A stretch of DNA of 39,194 nt from a virus. Below, piece by piece: positions 4,454 through 34,248 of the stretch (position 1 is the stretch's first letter; each line of letters starts with the position of its first letter). The stretch lies in UHGV virus genome UHGV-0142770; one strand, written 5' to 3'. Made by a program: the position numbers and the translations under genes. The notes below the pieces were generated by a model. It ran no database searches, was not told where the DNA came from, and saw only the letters and a program-made list of their open reading frames with translations.

Positions 4454-4557
4454 GTTAAATCTCCAGATAGTCGCAGCACCCGTTGCGCCGCATATCTGGT
4501 TATTCTATTACCTGAAAAACCACATATGGATATAAAGACTGTGAATATGAATAGATA

Positions 4558-4572
4558 TTACCTTTCAGGTAA
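4558..4572. promoter_or_regulatory. Candidate repressor operator TTACCTTTCAGGTAA (TTACC-N5-GGTAA) in the divergent region between tail fibre and antirepressor operon
   Basis: Perfect 5-bp inverted arms with 5-bp spacer. The 16-mer ATTACCTTTCAGGTAA is identical to the site at 23446-23461. Confidence 0.5.
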
Positions 4573-4609
4573 TTTGCAAAACGTGCTGGATAGCAAACAA
4601 ATTATTTGA

Positions 4610-4629
4610 TACTGTATATTTATACAGTT
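4610..4629 (+). promoter_or_regulatory. LexA (SOS) box TACTGTATATTTATACAGTT upstream of the antirepressor operon
   Basis: CTGT at 4612-4615, 8-nt AT-rich spacer, ACAG at 4624-4627: matches the gamma-proteobacterial consensus CTGT-N8-ACAG. Sits about 20 nt upstream of the ATG at 4649. Confidence 0.8.
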
Positions 4630-4906: not shown

Positions 4907-4937
4907 GGTTTGTAATTACCAAATTGAGTGCTTATAT

Positions 4938-4952
4938 TTACCTTTGCGGTAA
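4938..4952. promoter_or_regulatory. Candidate repressor operator TTACCTTTGCGGTAA between the small ORF and ant
   Basis: Perfect TTACC-N5-GGTAA palindrome. Confidence 0.45.
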
Positions 4953-5045
4953 ATTTACATCGCACTCCTCTTGTGCCATAGTAATCGGGCACTGGCAAAA
5001 TCCAGTGCCGGGATTGGTCTCCCGGATTACTACAGAGGCACATAT

Positions 5046-5065
5046 GCCGCATAAGCGGTTTTTTT
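5046..5065 (+). terminator. Weak intrinsic terminator/attenuator between small ORF and ant
   Basis: Short GC stem (CCGC-ATAA-GCGG) followed by T7 run 5059-5065, preceded by two longer hairpins at 4988-5009 and 5008-5025. Confidence 0.4.
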
Positions 5066-5219
5066 ATGTGTAAAGCGCACCTATTCTATGGTGGGCTGTG
5101 TGGGGGCACCGAAAGGTGCGCCGGGTTCCTTTGTAGCCGGTAAGACCAACTCTGCACAGTTCACCACCATCTGATTGGTCTCAGCGGTGGTGATTAACCT
5201 AACTACAAAGGTGATCGCC

Positions 5220-6754: not shown

Positions 6755-6916
6755 ATGAAAAAAGCATTTGCTGCACTGTTCGTTTTGTTGTCTCTGGTAG
6801 CTTCAACTCAGGCCTTTGCCGGTCGTTGTCAGCACGACAGCGATACTGCCGCTGACGGCTCCCGCTGCGGTGGGCGTTCTGCGGATTCCCGCCCGGGTGG
6901 CGGTGGCATTCGTTAA
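6755..6916 (+). CDS. Small secreted Gly/Cys-containing peptide (hypothetical)
   Basis: Internal ATG 6755 gives MKKAFAALFVLLSLVASTQAFA (signal peptide with AFA cleavage motif) plus a ~31-aa mature part with two Cys and a poly-Gly tail. Short and unrecognised, so tentative. Confidence 0.35.
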   Translation: MKKAFAALFVLLSLVASTQAFAGRCQHDSDTAADGSRCGGRSADSRPGGGGIR

Positions 6917-6939
6917 AAACAAGGCCGCGAAAGCGGCCT
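6915..6939 (-). terminator. Intrinsic terminator ending the minus-strand virion operon (after the lipoprotein gene)
   Basis: 7-bp stem AGGCCGC/GCGGCCT with GAAA tetraloop (6922-6939); on the minus strand a U-run follows (A-run 6915-6920 on +). Confidence 0.6.
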
Positions 6940-6954
6940 GTGACATGTCACGAC

Positions 6955-7368
6955 TTATAAAGATGACTGATATTTTACAACTCTGTTCATGGCATCTTTT
7001 TTCACCGAGCTGATATCAGTTCTTATTTTGGCTTCGTCATTACTGCTTATCATGCTATTAATTTTTTGCACTGACATGCCGTTTCTTTCAGCCATTGCAC
7101 ATACAGCAGCATCGTATGAAGAACTCGCTGCGATGGATATCACCTTGTTACACTCAAACACAGCACCTTCAGCAATATCAGATGCCGATGAGGCTGGCTT
7201 GGTATAAGTCTTGACGTAGTGATCAATACAACTATCCTTCGCCGTCTTGGCAAGAGAAAAATCCATTTTAACTTTGTCGCAATATGCCTTATCAACACCG
7301 TCATAAACATCATAGGATGTCGAGCAAGCGGATATCAAAAATACCGATAACAGCAATAATTCCTTCAT
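6955..7368 (-). CDS. Lipoprotein, last gene of the virion operon (candidate superinfection-exclusion factor)
   Basis: 137 aa; N-terminus MKELLLLSVFLISAC has signal peptide plus lipobox (ISAC); AT-rich; four further Cys. Confidence 0.6.
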   Translation of the reverse strand: MKELLLLSVFLISACSTSYDVYDGVDKAYCDKVKMDFSLAKTAKDSCIDHYVKTYTKPASSASDIAEGAVFECNKVISIAASSSYDAAVCAMAERNGMSVQKINSMISSNDEAKIRTDISSVKKDAMNRVVKYQSSL

Positions 7369-7377
7369 TGTTGTTCC

Positions 7378-9852
7378 TTATTGCGGAGTGACATCCTGAG
7401 GTCGCCACCAGTATGTCTGGTTAAACTCTTTCTTCGAACGTTGCTCCATTTTACGCAAATAGCCTGGTGAAAAATACTCCTGCATCTGATTAAAGATCAT
7501 GTGATCGAGAGCCGCCTTCAAGTACCAGAGATTCGCACCAGGCATCAAACCTTTCCCAAGCTTAACCAGATCACCACCAGTCTGCTCATTCTTCCCTTCC
7601 ACAGCATTTAACGGTATGCCCTGAGCAATCTTCACTACGTCATCAACCAGACCAGCTACCGGGCCAAGCATCGACGCTAGTGCGCCGCTCCCGTACCTGG
7701 TGTGGTCAGAGAAAAGAAAATCACCATACAACCCTGCCCCACCACCTTTTAAAAATGCATTTATCCAGAATTTAACCATGTTGTCACCGGTCATTTCTTT
7801 TGGATTTCTCCCATTAATAAGATCAGTAATCTGCATGGAAAGAGCACCAAGCATGGTTGTGCTTGCTAAAAACGTTGCTATATATGCCGCACGCCCACCA
7901 GCAGACGGCATCCCCATAGCTCTATGCCAGTGACGCATAACTACCGAGATAGGGAACGATTTAAACAGGAAAACACTTCTCGTTAATTCACCTTTCCATG
8001 TTCCACGCTGAAGACCAGACCCTACGAACATCTGTTCACGTGCGCCCGGTGTAATAACAGCCATATCAACTTCTTCAGTTACGGCACCGAGCAGTTTACG
8101 CATTGCCTCAAATTTCACACGTTCAGGCTCACCAAGATGTTTAACTGCTGAATCAGGGATACGCATAATGCTTTCCGGTGTCAGCATCGTATTATTACCG
8201 TTCCCCCAGTCCTCCTGTTGCGCCAGCTTCCATACGCTCCAGTCTGTGTCAGTAATCCCTTTGCTTTTCAGGATACGAAAATCAGAGTCATCGAGGCTAC
8301 GAAGGTCTGGTGTCCGTGACACTACTTCTCCCAGGCTTCCCATCATGGTTACGCCATAAGCGCGCTTGTGCGCATCTGACCATGCTGTAAGCCCACTGGC
8401 ACGCATTACCGCCGTTGCCGCCCAACGAGACACTGACGGCCCCATATTATCCATCGCCCAGCGGTTAACGCTGCCAAGTAGAGATTCCATCGCCAGACCA
8501 GCGCGGCGCGCCCGCGCAAGTTCTGTACGGTTCGTTGGGTCCATAGCTTCAAGCTGGTTGCGGAATAACTGGTTCATTGGAAGGTTGGTAACCTTCGCAG
8601 ACAGATACATGGTTCCAAGATCAGAGAACGATGACAGCAACGCGGATCCGAGCCTGCTGGCAACCAGCCAGTTTCTGATATTGTCAGACCAGCGCGCGAT
8701 GTGAGGATTCGCAACAGGCTGTGTCTTTCCGGAAATAAAGTTGTACAGGTTCTCTGTTTTGTTCGCCAGCCGCTCGACGCTACCGGTTTTACTCGGGTTA
8801 GCTGTTGCCGTTTCTGCCTTCACCTGATCAAGAAGGGAACGGAAAACATGATCGGGGTTTGGACCATATGTTTCCACCAAAGCAATATCTTTACTGATCC
8901 CTTCCAGGTGACCGACCATGATTTCCCATAGAGAGCGATCGCCATAAAGTTGCTGATATTGCAGATAGGAATCTGCATCTTTGAAATGTATCTGTCGTGA
9001 TGCATTACCACGGTTAGCACGTGCGCCGGAAATTCGCATTCCGGTATCAGTAAGCTTATTCAGCCCACCAGTAGCGATCGTGTTATAAGCCTCTCCAAGA
9101 AATGCAGACAACTCGACATCGTTCATCAGTTGTCCATCGGCTCGGGTATAATATTTGCGATCCAGCTTACCTATAACATCGCTAACCCATTTATCTTTTG
9201 ATACCGCCCCAACCTTTTCCATAGAATGATGTTGAGGGATCCCCCAGTTTTCGAGATAGCCAATGTCCCCACCAGCATCATTAAACCGGCGGCGCAGTAG
9301 CTCTGTCACTTCTCTCCACGCCTTAGCACCTTTTCTTGCTTTAGCATTGCCAGTATTTTGCCCTCGCATTTCATATACCAGGTCACGCACGCCCGCTTCA
9401 TCTTCAAACAGGCCAAAAAAGCGAGGATCAACTGCTTCGAATGCCTCCTGCAATTGACTCAATGCATAATCACGAGTGGCTTTTGTTCTGGACTCAACAG
9501 AGAGGAAATTCGATTTACCGTCTGCATTAAAAGCAATAGTACGGTTAAGAGCGCCGAGTTTCCCATCAGCCCCTTGATAGCTATTGATAAATTTATCCAA
9601 TCTCTGACGTGCGGCTATAGTGAGGGCCACACGACGTTTATTTAATGCCGCTTCTCGCTGTAATTCTTCAGATGCCAATTGTGCTGCACGATATAGCCGC
9701 TCTGATTCGGAAAGTTGTCTCCACGACATCGGGTCATCACGAGCAATGGAGCGCATATTTCGATAAATGCGGTCTTCAATATTCTGTATTTCTCGCGCCG
9801 TTAACGTGCGCTGCGCCGCCTGCTGGACCGCTTGTATACATTCCTGTCTCAT
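7378..9852 (-). CDS. Large internal virion/ejection protein (T7 gp16-class by position)
   Basis: 824 aa, last of three consecutive large ORFs between tail tubular genes and operon end; no enzymatic motif recognised. Confidence 0.55.
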   Translation of the reverse strand: MRQECIQAVQQAAQRTLTAREIQNIEDRIYRNMRSIARDDPMSWRQLSESERLYRAAQLASEELQREAALNKRRVALTIAARQRLDKFINSYQGADGKLGALNRTIAFNADGKSNFLSVESRTKATRDYALSQLQEAFEAVDPRFFGLFEDEAGVRDLVYEMRGQNTGNAKARKGAKAWREVTELLRRRFNDAGGDIGYLENWGIPQHHSMEKVGAVSKDKWVSDVIGKLDRKYYTRADGQLMNDVELSAFLGEAYNTIATGGLNKLTDTGMRISGARANRGNASRQIHFKDADSYLQYQQLYGDRSLWEIMVGHLEGISKDIALVETYGPNPDHVFRSLLDQVKAETATANPSKTGSVERLANKTENLYNFISGKTQPVANPHIARWSDNIRNWLVASRLGSALLSSFSDLGTMYLSAKVTNLPMNQLFRNQLEAMDPTNRTELARARRAGLAMESLLGSVNRWAMDNMGPSVSRWAATAVMRASGLTAWSDAHKRAYGVTMMGSLGEVVSRTPDLRSLDDSDFRILKSKGITDTDWSVWKLAQQEDWGNGNNTMLTPESIMRIPDSAVKHLGEPERVKFEAMRKLLGAVTEEVDMAVITPGAREQMFVGSGLQRGTWKGELTRSVFLFKSFPISVVMRHWHRAMGMPSAGGRAAYIATFLASTTMLGALSMQITDLINGRNPKEMTGDNMVKFWINAFLKGGGAGLYGDFLFSDHTRYGSGALASMLGPVAGLVDDVVKIAQGIPLNAVEGKNEQTGGDLVKLGKGLMPGANLWYLKAALDHMIFNQMQEYFSPGYLRKMEQRSKKEFNQTYWWRPQDVTPQ

Positions 9853-23356: not shown

Positions 23357-23446
23357 ATCAATGACTCCGTACGCAATTAAATTATTACCAATTTAACCAC
23401 ATATGATTTATTTATCGTAGATAGTTGACATTTAACGCACAAATTA

Positions 23447-23783: not shown

Positions 23784-23860
23784 GTGGCATTAGCTCAGTT
23801 GGACAGAGCAACCGCCTTCTAAGCGGTTGGTCGCAGGTTCGAATCCTGCATGCCACGCCA
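23784..23860 (+). tRNA. tRNA-Arg (anticodon UCU), phage-encoded
   Basis: 77 nt cloverleaf folded by hand: acceptor GTGGCAT/ATGCCAC, D-arm GCTC...GAGC, anticodon stem ACCGC/GCGGT with loop CTTCTAA (TCT at 23818-23820), T-arm GCAGG-TTCGAAT-CCTGC, discriminator G and encoded CCA. Closely resembles enterobacterial argU. Confidence 0.9.
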
Positions 23861-24046: not shown

Positions 24047-24081
24047 GCCTGATGACCACAAATTACCTTAAAGGTATAATC

Positions 24082-24900
24082 ATGAAAAACTTTAAGGTAA
24101 TTAGTATGTTCGAATCGTTCAAAGAGCTGTTTTTATCTACTGCCAATACTGCCGTGCATCGAGCCAAAAACCCTGTGCTTGGTGCTTTTGTTATGTCCTG
24201 GTGCGCCTTCAACTGGAAATCAATTCTTTATCTATTTTTTAGCAAATCAAACATAATAGATAAAATTTCATATATCTCAGATAACAGCACATGGAAAACT
24301 GTTATGTTTTATCCATGCTTATCTGTAATTGCTATCTGCTGCCTATTACCATGGGTAAACAATATCATTAACGTATGGCAAGCAAAGCCTCTTGATAATA
24401 ATGACTCAATCGAAAATCACCTGAAGGCAAGAAAAATCCAGCGTGAAACAAGACTGCAGAGGTTATTGGCTAAAAAAGATGTTACATACGACAAAGTTAA
24501 GACTGGCGCGGAAAAAGACATCCAAGAGATGAAAGAAGAGATTATTCGATCAAAGAATAGTATGGGGGAATTGACTGCCGAGTTGAAAGCTAAAGATGAC
24601 GAATTGAGATCCGCCAGTGCTCAGTTAGCAGCTCTAAATCATTCATTAAAAGAGATATCGGAAACTCTTGGAAGAATGAATGAGGCATATAAGACCCTCC
24701 AAAATGATTTCGACGAATACAAACTCAAATACCCTGAAAAATCTCAAATAAAAAGCCTTGCACTTGGCAACGGCCAAACAATTAGCAACTTTTTGGAGCA
24801 ACACAACTTATCCGGATTAAAATCTGGTAAGCCAAACGTTTTTAATAACTTTGGTGTTCTATCTGGATTATCAGGTTTCGAGGATAAAAATAAAGACTAA
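24082..24900 (+). CDS. AT-rich moron: membrane plus coiled-coil protein of unknown function (candidate exclusion/abortive-infection gene)
   Basis: ATG 24082 (alternatives 24052, 24106). Two hydrophobic segments (LGAFVMSWCAFNW; VMFYPCLSVIAICCLLPWV) then a long Lys/Glu-rich coiled coil. Opposite strand to the late operon; stop overlaps the terL stop. Preceded by an imperfect TTACC-N5-GGTAT site (24063-24077) and TATAAT (24075-24080). Confidence 0.6.
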   Translation: MKNFKVISMFESFKELFLSTANTAVHRAKNPVLGAFVMSWCAFNWKSILYLFFSKSNIIDKISYISDNSTWKTVMFYPCLSVIAICCLLPWVNNIINVWQAKPLDNNDSIENHLKARKIQRETRLQRLLAKKDVTYDKVKTGAEKDIQEMKEEIIRSKNSMGELTAELKAKDDELRSASAQLAALNHSLKEISETLGRMNEAYKTLQNDFDEYKLKYPEKSQIKSLALGNGQTISNFLEQHNLSGLKSGKPNVFNNFGVLSGLSGFEDKNKD

Positions 24901-26372
24901 GCATATGGATCGTACTCGGTAAGCGCCTTGCCTTGCTGGTTCTGCTGACCGGGAATTCGCAGACGCTTCGACACAGGGAACGCAAACGTCAGCAGTAGCG
25001 CATCGCCTTTACCAGGAGAACGCCCAAGCCGCTCTTTGATATCTTCCTTCGGTTCGATAACGATTTTACCGTCCACTCGAACTTTGTACTCTGCCGCCGA
25101 CAGGTCGTCCGCTGTTTCCTGGTCATCCAGCATGCCGCCCAGCCTCAGCCATGTCTTACATGAGTTGAACATCTCCCCACGCTTGTTAAGCATCTGCGGG
25201 TCAGTGGACGCACCGCCGAACGGAACAAGTTGCCATGTACGTCCCCAGCCATCACCGATTGACTTCAAACCGGTTCCGTAACCGAAGTCGATGAACACCG
25301 CGTCAGCCTGGTACTGGTCTTCAAAGTCAGCGATACGCTTCGCCATAATCAGATCGTCGGTGGTCTTGTTGCCGGTCCACAGCACCTTACTGTGCAGCCC
25401 CTGCCGCAGGTATATCACCGCGTCATCAACACCGGAGTATGCAGGGTCAACGCCGATTATCACCGGAGCATGTGCCACCTGCGCAGCAGTTACCACCCGT
25501 TTCATTGCCTCGTCAGTAAGACCGGTAGGGATAAACTGCAATTCAGATGCATCAGGGAATATGCCGCGCACACGGATTTTAACGAAGTCGCTGTCTTCCC
25601 CGTAGTCATCAACCCATTTCTGTAATTGCTGCTTGTTAGTACCTTCCACCGTCCGGCTGTCAATCTGTGCAGTTTTCCAGCGGTGTTTATATTTGCGGAA
25701 ACATTCGCGGAAACGCCCGGTGTTACGTGTCGGGTTTCCGAACGCCACCCAGATAATCTCAGTGTCTTCGTCCGTAAGCGCACCCTCAGCAACTTCCCAC
25801 ACCAGATCCGCAATGTTCGACGCTTCATCGAATACCACGATGATGCGTTTGCGCTCATTGTGTAATCCGGCGAATGCCTCAGTGTTGTGCTCAGACCAGG
25901 GGATTGCGTCAGCTCGCCACCGCTTGTCGTGCCCAGGGTCATTGCTGTACATCGCGGTAGCGGTACAGGTAAACCAGTCTTTCGTGATAGCAAGGTTCGA
26001 CCACTTGATAATTTCCGGCCAGGTCTTCGTTCGTAGCTGGTTGTCGGTGTTGGCGGTCACCACGACCTTACAATCCTCGCAAGTGGACATGCCCCAGTTG
26101 ATCAGCATTGAGATGAATGCGGATTTACCAATACCGTGACCAGAAGCGCGTGCCAGCATAAGCGGCTGATAGCGCGTCTCTGGATTCTGCAGGTGATCAC
26201 GTATCTCTCGGAACGCATCAGCCTGCCACTGACGTGGACCGGTGGCATGTGCCAGTTCAGTCCCCTCTTCCCCCCACGGGAACGCATAGAGGGCATAGCC
26301 AAGCGGATCGTGAGTGAACCCTGCAATATCCTCGATCAACTGCTCTTCAGGAGATAACGCTGCATCTGTCAC
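24897..26372 (-). CDS. terL: Terminase large subunit (TerL)
   Basis: 491 aa after terS with ATGA overlap; N-terminal ATPase region with Walker-A-like GHGIGKS and C-terminal nuclease-like region with conserved acidic residues (VVFDEA, GVDPAYSG). Confidence 0.9.
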   Translation of the reverse strand: MTDAALSPEEQLIEDIAGFTHDPLGYALYAFPWGEEGTELAHATGPRQWQADAFREIRDHLQNPETRYQPLMLARASGHGIGKSAFISMLINWGMSTCEDCKVVVTANTDNQLRTKTWPEIIKWSNLAITKDWFTCTATAMYSNDPGHDKRWRADAIPWSEHNTEAFAGLHNERKRIIVVFDEASNIADLVWEVAEGALTDEDTEIIWVAFGNPTRNTGRFRECFRKYKHRWKTAQIDSRTVEGTNKQQLQKWVDDYGEDSDFVKIRVRGIFPDASELQFIPTGLTDEAMKRVVTAAQVAHAPVIIGVDPAYSGVDDAVIYLRQGLHSKVLWTGNKTTDDLIMAKRIADFEDQYQADAVFIDFGYGTGLKSIGDGWGRTWQLVPFGGASTDPQMLNKRGEMFNSCKTWLRLGGMLDDQETADDLSAAEYKVRVDGKIVIEPKEDIKERLGRSPGKGDALLLTFAFPVSKRLRIPGQQNQQGKALTEYDPYA

Positions 26373-26965
26373 TGATTACCATCCTGACGTTCTTTGAGTC
26401 GCTTCCTGGCTGCCGCTATGCGATCAGCAATTGTCACATTCACATTAACATCCAGGCGTTCTTTGAATGCGTTGACGTCGACGTGCTTACCAATCAGTTC
26501 TAGGTTCTTCACCTTGTCAGGCCATTTAATTTTTTTGAGGATTGTCTCTATCGAATCCTCGTTCATGTTCATGATGGTCGATGACAGATCAAAGCCACTA
26601 AGCGTAGTGCGCCAGATTTTCGGCCACTCACGGATTGGTTTAAGGCTCCCATCGTCGTTGAGGATATCGATCACGTCCATCTGGTCGATCTCCACCAAGC
26701 GCATGAGAACGTAATCAGCACTGACGCGCATTCGTTTGTTGCGCTCCTCCATCAACTCGGCAATCCGTTTTTGAATGCGTTCATCGCGCATCATGACACT
26801 GGCTTTAACTGCCGCTGTATTTGGGGAGAATCCTGCGTTAATCGCTGCCTGAGTCTGGTTTTCAGGCGTTTTGATGTATGACTGGCAATAAGCCTCCTGC
26901 ATTGCTGTGAGCGGCTTAAATTGCGTTGATTTGCGTTTATAGGTTTTAGGTTCAGCAGGCATCAT
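26369..26965 (-). CDS. terS: Terminase small subunit (TerS)
   Basis: Start taken at the ATG pair 26965/26962 (GGTGG just upstream) rather than track TTG at 27043, which would place a terminator hairpin inside the gene. Basic helical N-terminus, coupled to terL. Confidence 0.7.
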   Translation of the reverse strand: MMPAEPKTYKRKSTQFKPLTAMQEAYCQSYIKTPENQTQAAINAGFSPNTAAVKASVMMRDERIQKRIAELMEERNKRMRVSADYVLMRLVEIDQMDVIDILNDDGSLKPIREWPKIWRTTLSGFDLSSTIMNMNEDSIETILKKIKWPDKVKNLELIGKHVDVNAFKERLDVNVNVTIADRIAAARKRLKERQDGNQ

Positions 26966-27009
26966 AACCACCGTGGTAATAGTTACCATTGTGGTAATAG
27001 TACCATGCA

Positions 27010-27034
27010 AAATAAAGCCGCCATAGTTGGCGGC
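27010..27034 (-). terminator. Intrinsic terminator immediately upstream of terS
   Basis: On the minus strand: stem GCCGCC, loop AACTAT, stem GGCGGC (27034-27017), followed by UUUAUUUU (27016-27010). Confidence 0.6.
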
Positions 27035-27083
27035 AGTATTCAAAACCCATCAAATTCATCATGCATAATCTACTCGTGACATG

Positions 27084-27425
27084 TCACACTATTAATTTCG
27101 TTTCATGCCAGCCTTTAGTCACCCAGCATTGCGAGTCACCATTACACGGGCATGAATTTACAGGAACTCTCTCGCCGCACTTACCGCAACGTTTTCTGCT
27201 GATCGATTTTATACGCCCGTGCACGCGTGCATCATCCTGGCGGATCAGTAACGCTATATACTCACCAAATTCGTAAGGCGCACGCCCGGGGCGACGCGTG
27301 GCACAGTTACGCTCCAGCATTTCAATTTCCTGAGCATCAAGCACAATCTCCAGCTTACGCACACCAGATGCAGCTTGTCTGGCTCTCTGAGCGGCTTTGC
27401 GCTCTGCTGCTGATTTAGCCATCAA
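27084..27425 (-). CDS. Cys-rich small basic protein (hypothetical; candidate late-gene regulator by position)
   Basis: 113 aa; C-terminal Cys cluster RCGKCGERVPVNSCPCNGDSQCW; last gene before the late control region. No family recognised. Confidence 0.45.
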   Translation of the reverse strand: MMAKSAAERKAAQRARQAASGVRKLEIVLDAQEIEMLERNCATRRPGRAPYEFGEYIALLIRQDDARVHGRIKSISRKRCGKCGERVPVNSCPCNGDSQCWVTKGWHETKLIV

Positions 27426-31026: not shown

Positions 31027-31029
31027 GAT

Positions 31030-31044
31030 TTACCTCTAAGGTAA
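31030..31044. promoter_or_regulatory. Candidate repressor operator TTACCTCTAAGGTAA abutting a -10-like TTTAAT (minus-strand promoter)
   Basis: Perfect palindrome. On the minus strand TTGATT-N17-TTTAAT immediately precedes it, the same layout as the promoter at 34187-34229. Confidence 0.5.
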
Positions 31045-31091
31045 TTAAAAACCACATAAGACACGAAATCAATAGAGTTTAGAATGTTTTG

Positions 31092-31106
31092 TTACCTGAT
31101 AGGTAA
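31092..31106. promoter_or_regulatory. Candidate repressor operator TTACCTGATAGGTAA
   Basis: Perfect palindrome 62 bp from the 31030 site, flanking the same promoter region downstream of the P-like gene. Confidence 0.5.
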
Positions 31107-31143
31107 TTATTGAGACGTAAAAAAATGCGCTATCGCGCTGGTA

Positions 31144-33417: not shown

Positions 33418-33440
33418 GGATAGTTACCTATGAGGTGCAT

Positions 33441-33510: not shown

Positions 33511-34095
33511 ATGAAAAGTATCCAGGACGTCCGCAGGCAAAATCTCAACGACTTGATCGACCGTGAATTCAATGGTGTTCAGACGCGGATGGCAGAAAAA
33601 CTTGGAACTCAGGCAAATCTGGTAAACCGCTGGGCTCTTGGCAAGAAGGTTATCGGCGACCAGGTTGCGCGAAAAATTGAAGCTGCCGCCAATAAACCCC
33701 GTAACTGGCTTGATATCGATCGCTCGCTTTCTCAGGAAGGTTTTCAGCCTGTCGGCCCAAGCGACATTGGTCAGCTGGCAGCTCACAACCTGGAACGCTG
33801 GATGAGTGAAAGCCGCGACCTTTCAACTCAGGGAAAACTTCACCGCGCATCCGGCGTCGCCCAGGTGACAATAAGCCGCCTGTTAAACAATGAGGTCAGC
33901 GTTTCCATTTCCACCCTGGAGAATGTTGCATCTGCATTCGGGCGTCACGGATATGAACTACTGATCCATCCGCATGACCCTGCAACTATCAACTATGACC
34001 GCTCGCGCTACGCATTGTTACCTGAAACAGAGAAGGCAAAGATCGAAAGTTACATTGAATTTGTCATCAACCAGAACGAAAAAAACAAACAATAA
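33511..34095 (+). CDS. CI-like repressor, non-cleavable type (XRE HTH, no S24 peptidase motifs)
   Basis: 194 aa; N-terminal HTH (VQTRMAEKLGTQANLVNRWALGKK) like lambdoid repressors; C-terminal half lacks the Ser/Lys autopeptidase signature; divergent from cro and followed by a terminator. Confidence 0.65.
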   Translation: MKSIQDVRRQNLNDLIDREFNGVQTRMAEKLGTQANLVNRWALGKKVIGDQVARKIEAAANKPRNWLDIDRSLSQEGFQPVGPSDIGQLAAHNLERWMSESRDLSTQGKLHRASGVAQVTISRLLNNEVSVSISTLENVASAFGRHGYELLIHPHDPATINYDRSRYALLPETEKAKIESYIEFVINQNEKNKQ

Positions 34096-34140: not shown

Positions 34141-34152
34141 TTGCCTATTCGA

Positions 34153-34167
34153 TTACCTAACAGGTAA
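34153..34167. promoter_or_regulatory. Candidate repressor operator TTACCTAACAGGTAA (OL-like, upstream of -35)
   Basis: Perfect palindrome 20 bp upstream of TTGACA at 34187-34192. Confidence 0.5.
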
Positions 34168-34186
34168 TTTTTTTAACTCATATCTA

Positions 34187-34229
34187 TTGACATCAAACCA
34201 GATACGCATAATTATTACCTCAACGGTAA
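34187..34229 (+). promoter_or_regulatory. pL-like early promoter with overlapping operator (TTGACA-N17-AATTAT then TTACCTCAACGGTAA)
   Basis: -35 TTGACA 34187-34192, 17-bp spacer, -10-like AATTAT 34210-34215, perfect operator at 34215-34229 spanning the predicted start site; drives the plus-strand operon. Confidence 0.5.
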
Positions 34230-34248
34230 CAGACCGAGGTAACAAGTT

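Follow-up and report, generated by a model that had tools for sequence, protein, structure and literature searches.

The closest described counterparts of the locus considered here are found in the database records of the phages epsilon15 and phiV10 (NC_004775 and NC_007804), in which a gene of the gp49 type, a rho-independent terminator, a repressor-binding site and terS, the gene for the small terminase, follow one another in that order. The RefSeq record of epsilon15 lists seven sites annotated as 'protein_bind: repressor, lysogeny', one of which, at 12-27, lies directly before terS at 47, and on the circular map the rho-independent terminator at 39646-39672 comes directly before this site; the phiV10 record flags a terminator at its end. 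A terminator and one operator are therefore already on record for a relative. Here we analyse positions 26,966 to 27,425 of the virus genome UHGV-0142770, the 39,194 nucleotides of which we refer to as the window. The same order recurs there, with two differences from the records: there are two operators rather than one, and the gene upstream ends in a 12-bp dyad which, like its repetition elsewhere in the genome, the records leave unannotated. The stretch separates the early-right (PR-like) operon from the DNA-packaging genes in a temperate phage of the phiV10/epsilon15 type, and we read it, with a probability of about 0.55, as a composite of independent modules, namely a gene that ends in the dyad, a terminator, operators of the repressor Rep, and a terS that is reached from upstream.

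The window is the near-complete genome of a Uetakevirus resembling phiV10 and PAS61. Over 1.7 kb around the junction its best match is Escherichia phage vB_EcoP_PAS61 (94% coverage, 96.7% identity); the same 1.7 kb also matches phiV10, TL-2011b, ZX5 and the O157 typing phages 9 and 10 and, more distantly, epsilon15, SPN1S and Tyrion. At the junction, sequence identity is 97-99% with the phiV10/PAS61 group and about 73-83% with the Salmonella group. All of the matching phages are Uetakeviruses, temperate podophages. The late genes of the window are on the minus strand, and feature coordinates at the junction are read along that strand. The papers on PAS61 and ZX5 contain nothing on this junction. 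Going by annotated relatives, the early-right operon starts at a divergent repressor/cro-type region and runs through DnaT-like and P-like replication genes and then Eae, Ea22, DUF551 and ASCH accessory genes to a gene for a 112-aa protein (27084-27422, minus strand; epsilon15 gp49/phiV10 p55 type), which is followed by terS. As the last gene of the early-right operon, the 112-aa gene occupies the position of lambda Q. This is the valid core of a preliminary description of the DNA, which had likened the region to the lambda pR'-tR' arrangement or to an activator-dependent late promoter: a control junction does lie directly upstream of terS, but a late promoter in the style of lambda is not demonstrable. 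Each feature that the description listed stands at the position given, yet most of the reading placed on them needs revision.

Just before terS that description had noted direct repeats and an inverted element, and both are present, the former as two units of ACCAyyGTGGTAATAGT (26967-26983 and 26985-27001) that are 88% identical with a spacing of 18, the latter as GGTAA-CTA-TTACC; an inverted repeat of 16 nt is found as well. The part in a late promoter that had been suggested for them is not sustained, however, as motif enrichment, the epsilon15 annotation and repressor homology point instead to operators, arranged in tandem, of the prophage repressor. Both repeats are 17-bp dyads of the form ATTACC-N5-GGTAAT, and a scan for this motif with up to two mismatches allowed finds 16 sites in the window against 1.13 expected, a number that none of 100 shuffles reached. 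The two predicted Rep sites, O1 (ATTACCACAATGGTAAC, 26982-26998) and O2 (ATTACCACGGTGGTTAT, 26964-26980), each carry one mismatch. O1 is kept in all eight relatives compared, including those that have no terminator, and the epsilon15 site at 12-27 is its homologue. O2, which contains the Shine-Dalgarno (SD) sequence of terS (GGTGG, 26972-26968) as well as the first two bases of the start codon, is more degenerate than O1 in these relatives, with the GGTGG retained.

The predicted binder of both sites is encoded in the window itself. The Rep repressor gene (33511-34095, plus strand; 194 aa) specifies a protein that matches the repressor of Salmonella phage SPC32H from end to end (PDB 5d50, E 4e-42). 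This gene is flanked by operator sites at 33440, 34152 and 34214, which overlap well-defined -35/-10 elements; others stand ahead of the gp3/portal block, an antirepressor-type module and the tailspike gene, and two pairs of sites, 31029/31091 and 34152/34214, lie around promoters with a separation of exactly 62 bp in each case. A paper that cites the work on SPC32H Rep describes the protein as binding palindromic sites as a tetramer whose DNA-binding dimers are drawn from different dimers, one tetramer being enough for repression (PMC9638917). Such binding by SPC32H Rep (PDB 5d50/5d4z) fits the paired operators of the window, be they adjacent or 62 bp apart, and the repressor encoded here, as a full-length homologue, is predicted to bind the terS-proximal pair. 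With the motif, copies of it in the immunity region and an encoded cognate repressor all found, we regard O1 and O2 as predicted operators of an SPC32H-type Rep. The 62-bp pairs (31029-31107 and 34152-34230, measured start to start) bracket two early promoters; in both the proximal operator overlaps the -10 element and its right half, AGGTAA, forms the SD sequence of the next gene. A spacing of 62 bp fits looping by a tetrameric repressor.

The tandem dyads might alternatively act as RNA, through a hairpin (27008-26959) that buries the SD sequence and AUG of terS and subjects terminase to translational control. The predicted fold does pair GCAUGGUAC with GGUGGUUAUGAUGC, and the whole region has a z-score of -3.9, but two adjacent palindromic operators will always yield such a hairpin, and the sequence fits a DNA operator consensus that is present at 14 other places. 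Among the eight relatives there are no compensatory pairs and several broken ones, with a covariation term of +0.22. In the light of this lack of covariation the hairpin is probably a by-product of the operators, and we consider its regulatory role highly improbable. Minus-strand transcripts reading through the junction would carry the 26959-27008 hairpin.

The intrinsic terminator of the preliminary description is real, being both a scanner match and the dominant hairpin of the RNA fold. It consists of GCCGCC-AACTAT-GGCGGC (27034-27017) followed by TTTATTTT (27016-27009), occupying 27009-27034 on the minus strand at the end of the early-right operon. Its stem, to which the scanner assigns seven pairs, six of them G-C, is the strongest predicted structure in the region and does not vary among six aligned relatives. 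The homologous gene of lambdoid prophages is followed instead by unrelated terminators, a replacement that argues for function over mere descent. A terminator before terS is not indispensable: Enterobacter phage BUCT554 and Klebsiella phage ST11-OXA245phi3.2 do without one, and in them a umuD-like gene with a TTGACT-17-TATACT promoter and a LexA box of its own has been inserted after the dyad and runs directly into the operators and terS. ST512-KPC3phi13.3, with another insert, has kept the terminator. The position just after the dyad is a favoured place for SOS-controlled inserts, among them umuD-like and Rem-like genes, each of which carries a LexA box and a promoter of the TTGACT type (BUCT554 800-1290; ST11-OXA245phi3.2 1005-1475; ST512-KPC3phi13.3 560-1025; locus L019 3836-4030), and the 41-nt spacer of the window (AGATTA...GCATGAT) resembles a deleted remnant of such a TTGACT/LexA-box promoter. 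A known RNA family was also considered as an explanation of the junction region, but Rfam gives nothing there at gathering score; the best match below threshold, rseX (27.8 bits against a gathering score of 50, E 0.17), is mostly driven by the terminator.

The terminator and operators also bear on where terS begins. The small terminase (Pfam Terminase_2, E 1e-29; phrog_51) is encoded at 26369-26965 on the minus strand, its start being the ATG at 26965, which is preceded by GGTGG, and the equivalent ATG, after GGTGG, is the annotated start in epsilon15 and Tyrion. The mechanically called open reading frame (ORF) begins instead at a TTG at 27043 and its frame crosses the terminator and both operators, as does that of the upstream start annotated in phiV10 (41-715), PAS61 (6953-7627) and SPN1S. 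The long form is probably a mis-called start. We also considered a cos or pac site at this position, since the records of phiV10, Tyrion and SPN1S begin a few bases from the dyad. They do so at different bases, though, and the phiV10 record just closes with the stop codon of its last gene, which indicates a numbering convention rather than a physical end.

At the other side of the terminator lies the perfect 12-bp palindrome GTGACATGTCAC (27087-27076) that had been noticed earlier. It is a probable protein-binding dyad, GTGAC-AT-GTCAC, which overlaps the end of the 112-aa gene such that the TGA stop codon of the ORF (27086-27084) falls within it. A second, exact copy at 6940-6951 stands three bases after the last small gene of the late block preceding the ant/tailspike slot, where it abuts a minus-strand terminator (AGGCCGC-TTTC-GCGGCCT followed by TGTTTTT; dyad and terminator together 6915-6951), and this copy is syntenic in epsilon15, SPN1S, phiV10 and BUCT554. 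Two to four copies of GTGACNNGTCAC are found in each of five Uetakevirus genomes against 0.04 expected, and two copies arose in 2 of 2000 shuffles of the window. The dyad occupies three positions in Uetakeviruses. One is on the stop codon of the 112-aa gene; the second is next to a terminator that separates terL from a convergent accessory gene, and the third precedes the terminator in front of the tailspike slot. The syntenic copy after terL is missing from the window, where a 282-aa plus-strand ORF adjoins terL. Neither the copy at 6940 nor the copies after terL have a -10 element downstream, and this recurrence at sites without a promoter speaks against the idea that the palindrome serves in a promoter spacer.

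The association of the dyad with the gene extends well beyond these phages. We examined 27 loci that encode homologues 50-80% identical to the 112-aa protein, on contigs chosen as one genome per species from Citrobacter, Klebsiella, Enterobacter, Pantoea, Xenorhabdus, Serratia and others. The dyad lies on the stop codon or 2-14 nt after it at 21 of the 27 loci, or at 23 if one mismatch is allowed. The half-sites GTGAC and GTCAC are constant throughout, whereas the two bases between them differ (AT, AC, CT, GT, AG); the dyad persists where the stop codon falls outside it, and in Pantoea it is lengthened to 16-18 bp. As judged by comparison of these loci, the pattern is the signature of selection at the level of the nucleic acid and of binding by a putative symmetric dimer. 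A terminator within 110 nt is present at 8 of the 21 dyad loci, a LexA-box promoter at two, and operators at three, all of them in Uetakevirus prophages. A terminator-coupled element, which describes all the Uetakevirus copies and several lambdoid ones, is thus not what the dyad is in general, and its stable partner is the gene, not the terminator. The dyad is also a mosaic joint: a Klebsiella prophage encodes a protein only 77% identical to that of the window, yet the spacer, terminator and operators that follow are almost identical to the window's. The dyad is probably the binding site of the 112-aa protein. A CRP site was considered and rejected: the half-sites of the dyad are TGTGA/TCACA-like, but their spacing is 4 instead of 6. 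Searches of the literature with the 12-mer GTGACATGTCAC returned unrelated papers only, and a dyad that is both linked to a gene and repeated in the genome is found in neither the records nor the searchable literature.

The 112-aa protein comprises a basic N-terminal helix, a ribbon-helix-helix (RHH) core and a C-terminal Cys4 knuckle (C79, C82, C92/94, C99). The AlphaFold2 model is confident (pLDDT 90.6) and has the beta-alpha-alpha fold of the CopG/Arc/MetJ class of RHH proteins, from which the protein is predicted to bind DNA. The protein belongs to PHROG 536, 'transcriptional regulator'. Its family is a small one of 152 clusters at 50% identity, and an alignment of 55 sequences shows a conserved helix with R8, K9, Q12 and R13, a second helix with the pattern PY...EY...LIR, and invariant C79 and C82, with C99. 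Neither the protein nor its 55 relatives match Pfam, and no domain of the Phage_antitermQ type is found in them; Foldseek against the PDB gives no significant match. In a profile search of PDB sequences, residues 48-109 match TraR (E 0.018) and YbiI (E 0.024) marginally, and hhalign against F-plasmid TraR gives a probability of 69%. The pattern of these RNA polymerase-binding zinc-finger proteins of the DksA/TraR family is a long helix and then CxxC-N17-CxxC, whereas the second Cys pair here is not CxxC. As no member of the family matches the Pfam model zf-dskA_traR, the likeness to TraR is a lead only.

The preliminary description had put this Cys-rich protein forward, on the grounds of its position, as a candidate for the late regulator. 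Its place as the last early-right gene, its predicted DNA binding and a dyad that is very probably linked to it all suit a regulator, but it bears no Q-family signature and has close homologues in lambdoid nin regions. The genes for these homologues, 79-80% identical, separate replication genes of the DnaB type from genes of the nin region in lambdoid prophages. The latter are DUF1367, YbcO and a Phage_antitermQ gene in one set, and NinB, YbcO and RusA in a second; in one Salmonella lambdoid example the dyad comes after the homologous gene, then a terminator and then a LexA-box gene. The coexistence with a genuine Q makes a dedicated role as late-operon antiterminator unlikely. That the protein is a DNA-binding regulator at the exit of the early operon is nonetheless credible on the strength of the modelled fold, and by binding the dyad it might gate transcription, serve as a roadblock or antiterminator, or regulate the SOS-controlled inserts often found after the dyad. 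A bolder proposal, which we put forward with considerable reserve, is that the RHH/zinc-knuckle protein and the GTGAC-NN-GTCAC attached to the 3' end of its gene form a cis-trans pair, widespread in enterobacterial prophages, that gates the exit of the early operon. Bound at the end of its own gene, and in Uetakeviruses also at two more copies of the dyad next to terminators, the protein would then engage passing RNA polymerase, perhaps via the TraR-like module, and let it pass or stop it; the whole would be a Q-like switch, loaded mid-operon and built on an unrelated fold.

No conserved sigma-70 promoter was found on either side of the terminator. The preliminary description had placed the palindrome in the spacer of its candidate promoter, and the hexamers concerned do exist, TTAATA at 27095-27090 and TAGATT at 27072-27067 with a 17-bp spacer, each matching the consensus at four of six positions (8/12). 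A consensus promoter scanner with a threshold of 9/12 lists only GTGACA-18-CATGAT (27087-27058; 9/12), and its yield over 2 kb is one promoter-like site, against a chance expectation of 3.3 from shuffles. Given the score of 8/12 and fewer sites than in the shuffles, the proposed promoter is no better than chance. Its -10 element, moreover, lies within a 6+12-nt indel block that the six-relative alignment shows to be missing from the epsilon15/SPN1S/Tyrion/PAT1 group. We find neither of these pairs, which together cover 27058-27095 on the minus strand, convincing. The alternative offered by the epsilon15 group, GTGACA-17-TAAATT, would place the transcription start at the foot of the terminator stem.

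A constitutive promoter overlapping the dyad would nevertheless lend itself to a switch of the pR'-tR' kind with an unrelated protein, in which a short RNA runs to the terminator and the 112-aa protein on the dyad, in the manner of Q at its binding element (QBE), modifies polymerase to read on into terS, with GTGACA and CATGAT or TAAATT, or else TTAATA-17-TAGATT, as hexamers. The 9/12 site of the window and the epsilon15 alternative use the left half of the dyad as their -35 element; the dyad is tied to a gene that is the last of the early-right operon and encodes a predicted DNA binder; the weak TraR/DksA-like match hints at contact with RNA polymerase; and two more copies of the dyad abut terminators of the late region. 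The hexamers are poor and differ between groups, however, and the start implied in the epsilon15 group would fall at the foot of the terminator stem. Gene, dyad and terminator also occur together in lambdoid nin regions, in one set alongside their own Q, BUCT554 and ST11-OXA245phi3.2 have no terminator, most homologue loci outside this phage group have none after the dyad, and the copies at 6940 and after terL have no -10 element. The protein, finally, has no Q-family domain, and its similarity to TraR is marginal and falls short of the zf-dskA_traR model. We therefore regard such a switch as quite improbable.

Beyond the terminator the hexamer pairs are neither convincing nor conserved, and none reaches 9/12. 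The gp3/portal, tailspike and lysis blocks share a layout in five genomes, an operator being followed after about 40 nt by CCAYATRTGGTTT and a TAnnnT-type -10 element, and CCAYATRTGGTTT could be the site of some late regulator. Upstream of terS this motif was not found even with three mismatches, and a shared late-promoter motif was rejected for terS. With poor hexamers and no shared motif, no terS promoter can be pointed to. The near-palindromic copies of CCAYATRTGGTTT lie at 2218-2227, 4520-4529 and 23394-23406 of the window, on the minus strand and around -31 to -22, and related copies are found in the spacers of early promoters at 31049 and 34195.

A weak, Rep-repressed promoter could still overlap O1 and O2, for example TTGCAT-17-GGTAAC or TTTATT-17-CACAAT, with its start inside O2 and the GGTGG retained in a short leader; an analogue would be the early promoter at 31029-31107. 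Architecture of this sort exists in the phage, since at 31029 and 34214 an operator overlaps the -10 element and a start codon follows 2-20 nt on. In addition, a TTGCAT/TTGCGT/TGGCAT block upstream of O1 is kept even in relatives without the terminator, and operators make most sense as the operators of a promoter. The hexamers themselves speak against it: besides falling short of 9/12, the -10 candidates lack the key A2 or T6 or are unconserved (GGTAAC/GGTAAT; CACAAT versus CAAAAC), and the TT of the -35 element is taken from the U-tract of the terminator, which is lost in BUCT554 and ST11-OXA245phi3.2. On balance we think this promoter unlikely.

The simplest reading, we infer, is that terS and terL are reached by transcription from upstream, with Rep at O1/O2 as a safeguard in the lysogen. 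The 112-aa gene ends in a GTGAC-NN-GTCAC dyad that would most likely be bound by the product of that same gene, and the terminator, conspicuous in the sequence, would stop most early-right transcription. In a lysogen, a Rep tetramer on O1 and O2, situated between the terminator and the start of terS and covering the SD sequence, would block polymerase arriving from upstream and would also occlude any weak overlapping promoter, so that terminase stays off. Upon induction Rep would be inactivated, and terS-terL would most likely be expressed from transcripts born upstream that pass the terminator, the likely source being the early-right operon or, in some relatives, a LexA-controlled moron promoter just after the dyad. 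Read-in from upstream is feasible because the LexA-box units of BUCT554 and ST11-OXA245phi3.2 enter the operators and terS with no terminator in the way.

Several observations weigh against this reading. To read through a strong terminator requires antitermination or a cryptic promoter, neither of which was identified at the junction. The gp3/portal, tailspike and lysis blocks have promoters of their own, and by analogy terS ought to have a dedicated one too. In several relatives O2 is degenerate, and binding of Rep to its motif is deduced from database annotation and the location of the sites. The 112-aa protein is a putative binder of the dyad, and outside the window a terminator lies within 110 nt of the dyad at only 8 of 21 homologue loci. 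Of a lambda-type pR'-tR' module at the junction, where no promoter is demonstrable, there is no evidence.

Elsewhere in the window, Rfam matches above gathering score identify an isrK Hfq-binding RNA (4989-5065, plus strand) and a C4 antisense RNA (5084-5171, plus strand), and the DNA upstream contains Rep operator sites (4557-4573 and 4937-4953) together with a perfect LexA box (TACTGTATATTTATACAGT, 4610-4628). Lying between the tail genes and the tailspike, the 4989-5171 region resembles an antirepressor module under antisense control in the style of P1/P7. The accessory slot between terL and the portal block holds a tRNA-Arg (anticodon TCT; 23784-23860, plus strand) and the 282-aa ORF mentioned above, which is coiled-coil-like and is encoded at 24052-24900 on the plus strand, opposite to the late genes. 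Operator sites at 23446 and 24062 overlap plus-strand TTGACA and TATAAT elements.

For annotation it follows that the 'repeats' of phiV10-like phages in front of terS are best taken as operators of the repressor, that terS should be started at the ATG after the operators and not at the upstream TTG, and that a late promoter should not be inferred here without data. A junction with a terminator and operators but no visible promoter is a place to learn how the terminase of epsilon15-type phages is switched on, and late-gene control is of practical use in this group, as phiV10-type phages are employed for the typing of E. coli O157 and as reporter phages. A single new lead emerges, the dyad after a small RHH/zinc-knuckle gene, which occurs in many Enterobacterales prophages and beside the terminators of Uetakeviruses; if the dyad is indeed the target of the protein, the two would define a common and unstudied prophage regulator.

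Among the systems with which the locus can be compared, the Q/qut-pR'/tR' system of lambda resembles it in having the last early-right gene encode a predicted DNA binder, followed by a terminator and the late genes, and in the position of the dyad beside promoter-like hexamers. It differs in that the present locus has no Q-family domain and no credible conserved promoter, in that the terminator is dispensable in two relatives, and in that the module of gene and dyad coexists with a genuine Q gene in lambdoid prophages. A positional parallel is offered by the terminators of the lambda nin region. In lambda, tR2 lies between the replication genes and the nin region, and in lambdoid prophages the homologous gene, dyad and terminator are found between the replication genes and ninB, YbcO and RusA. 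The junction described here departs from that arrangement in that nin, Q and the lysis block are missing at this position and terS follows directly; no N-like factor was identified in this phage.

The half-sites of the dyad recall the matS sites of E. coli, whose 13-bp consensus is GTGAC-RNY-GTCAC, but the centre of the phage dyad is 2 nt rather than 3 in all 21 loci. MatP and the 112-aa protein are 16% identical and match at the level of a generic RHH fold, and a Cys4 knuckle takes the place of the MatP coiled coil. For the operators, a parallel is provided by the stoperators of mycobacteriophage L5, the many scattered sites at which the gp71 repressor is able to stop elongating polymerase. 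The sites in the window differ from these in being symmetric dyads, to which orientation dependence cannot apply, and in often being clearly parts of promoters. In both cases, however, many repressor sites are scattered over the genome, some of them before late genes, where in a lysogen the bound repressor could bring transcribing polymerase to a halt.

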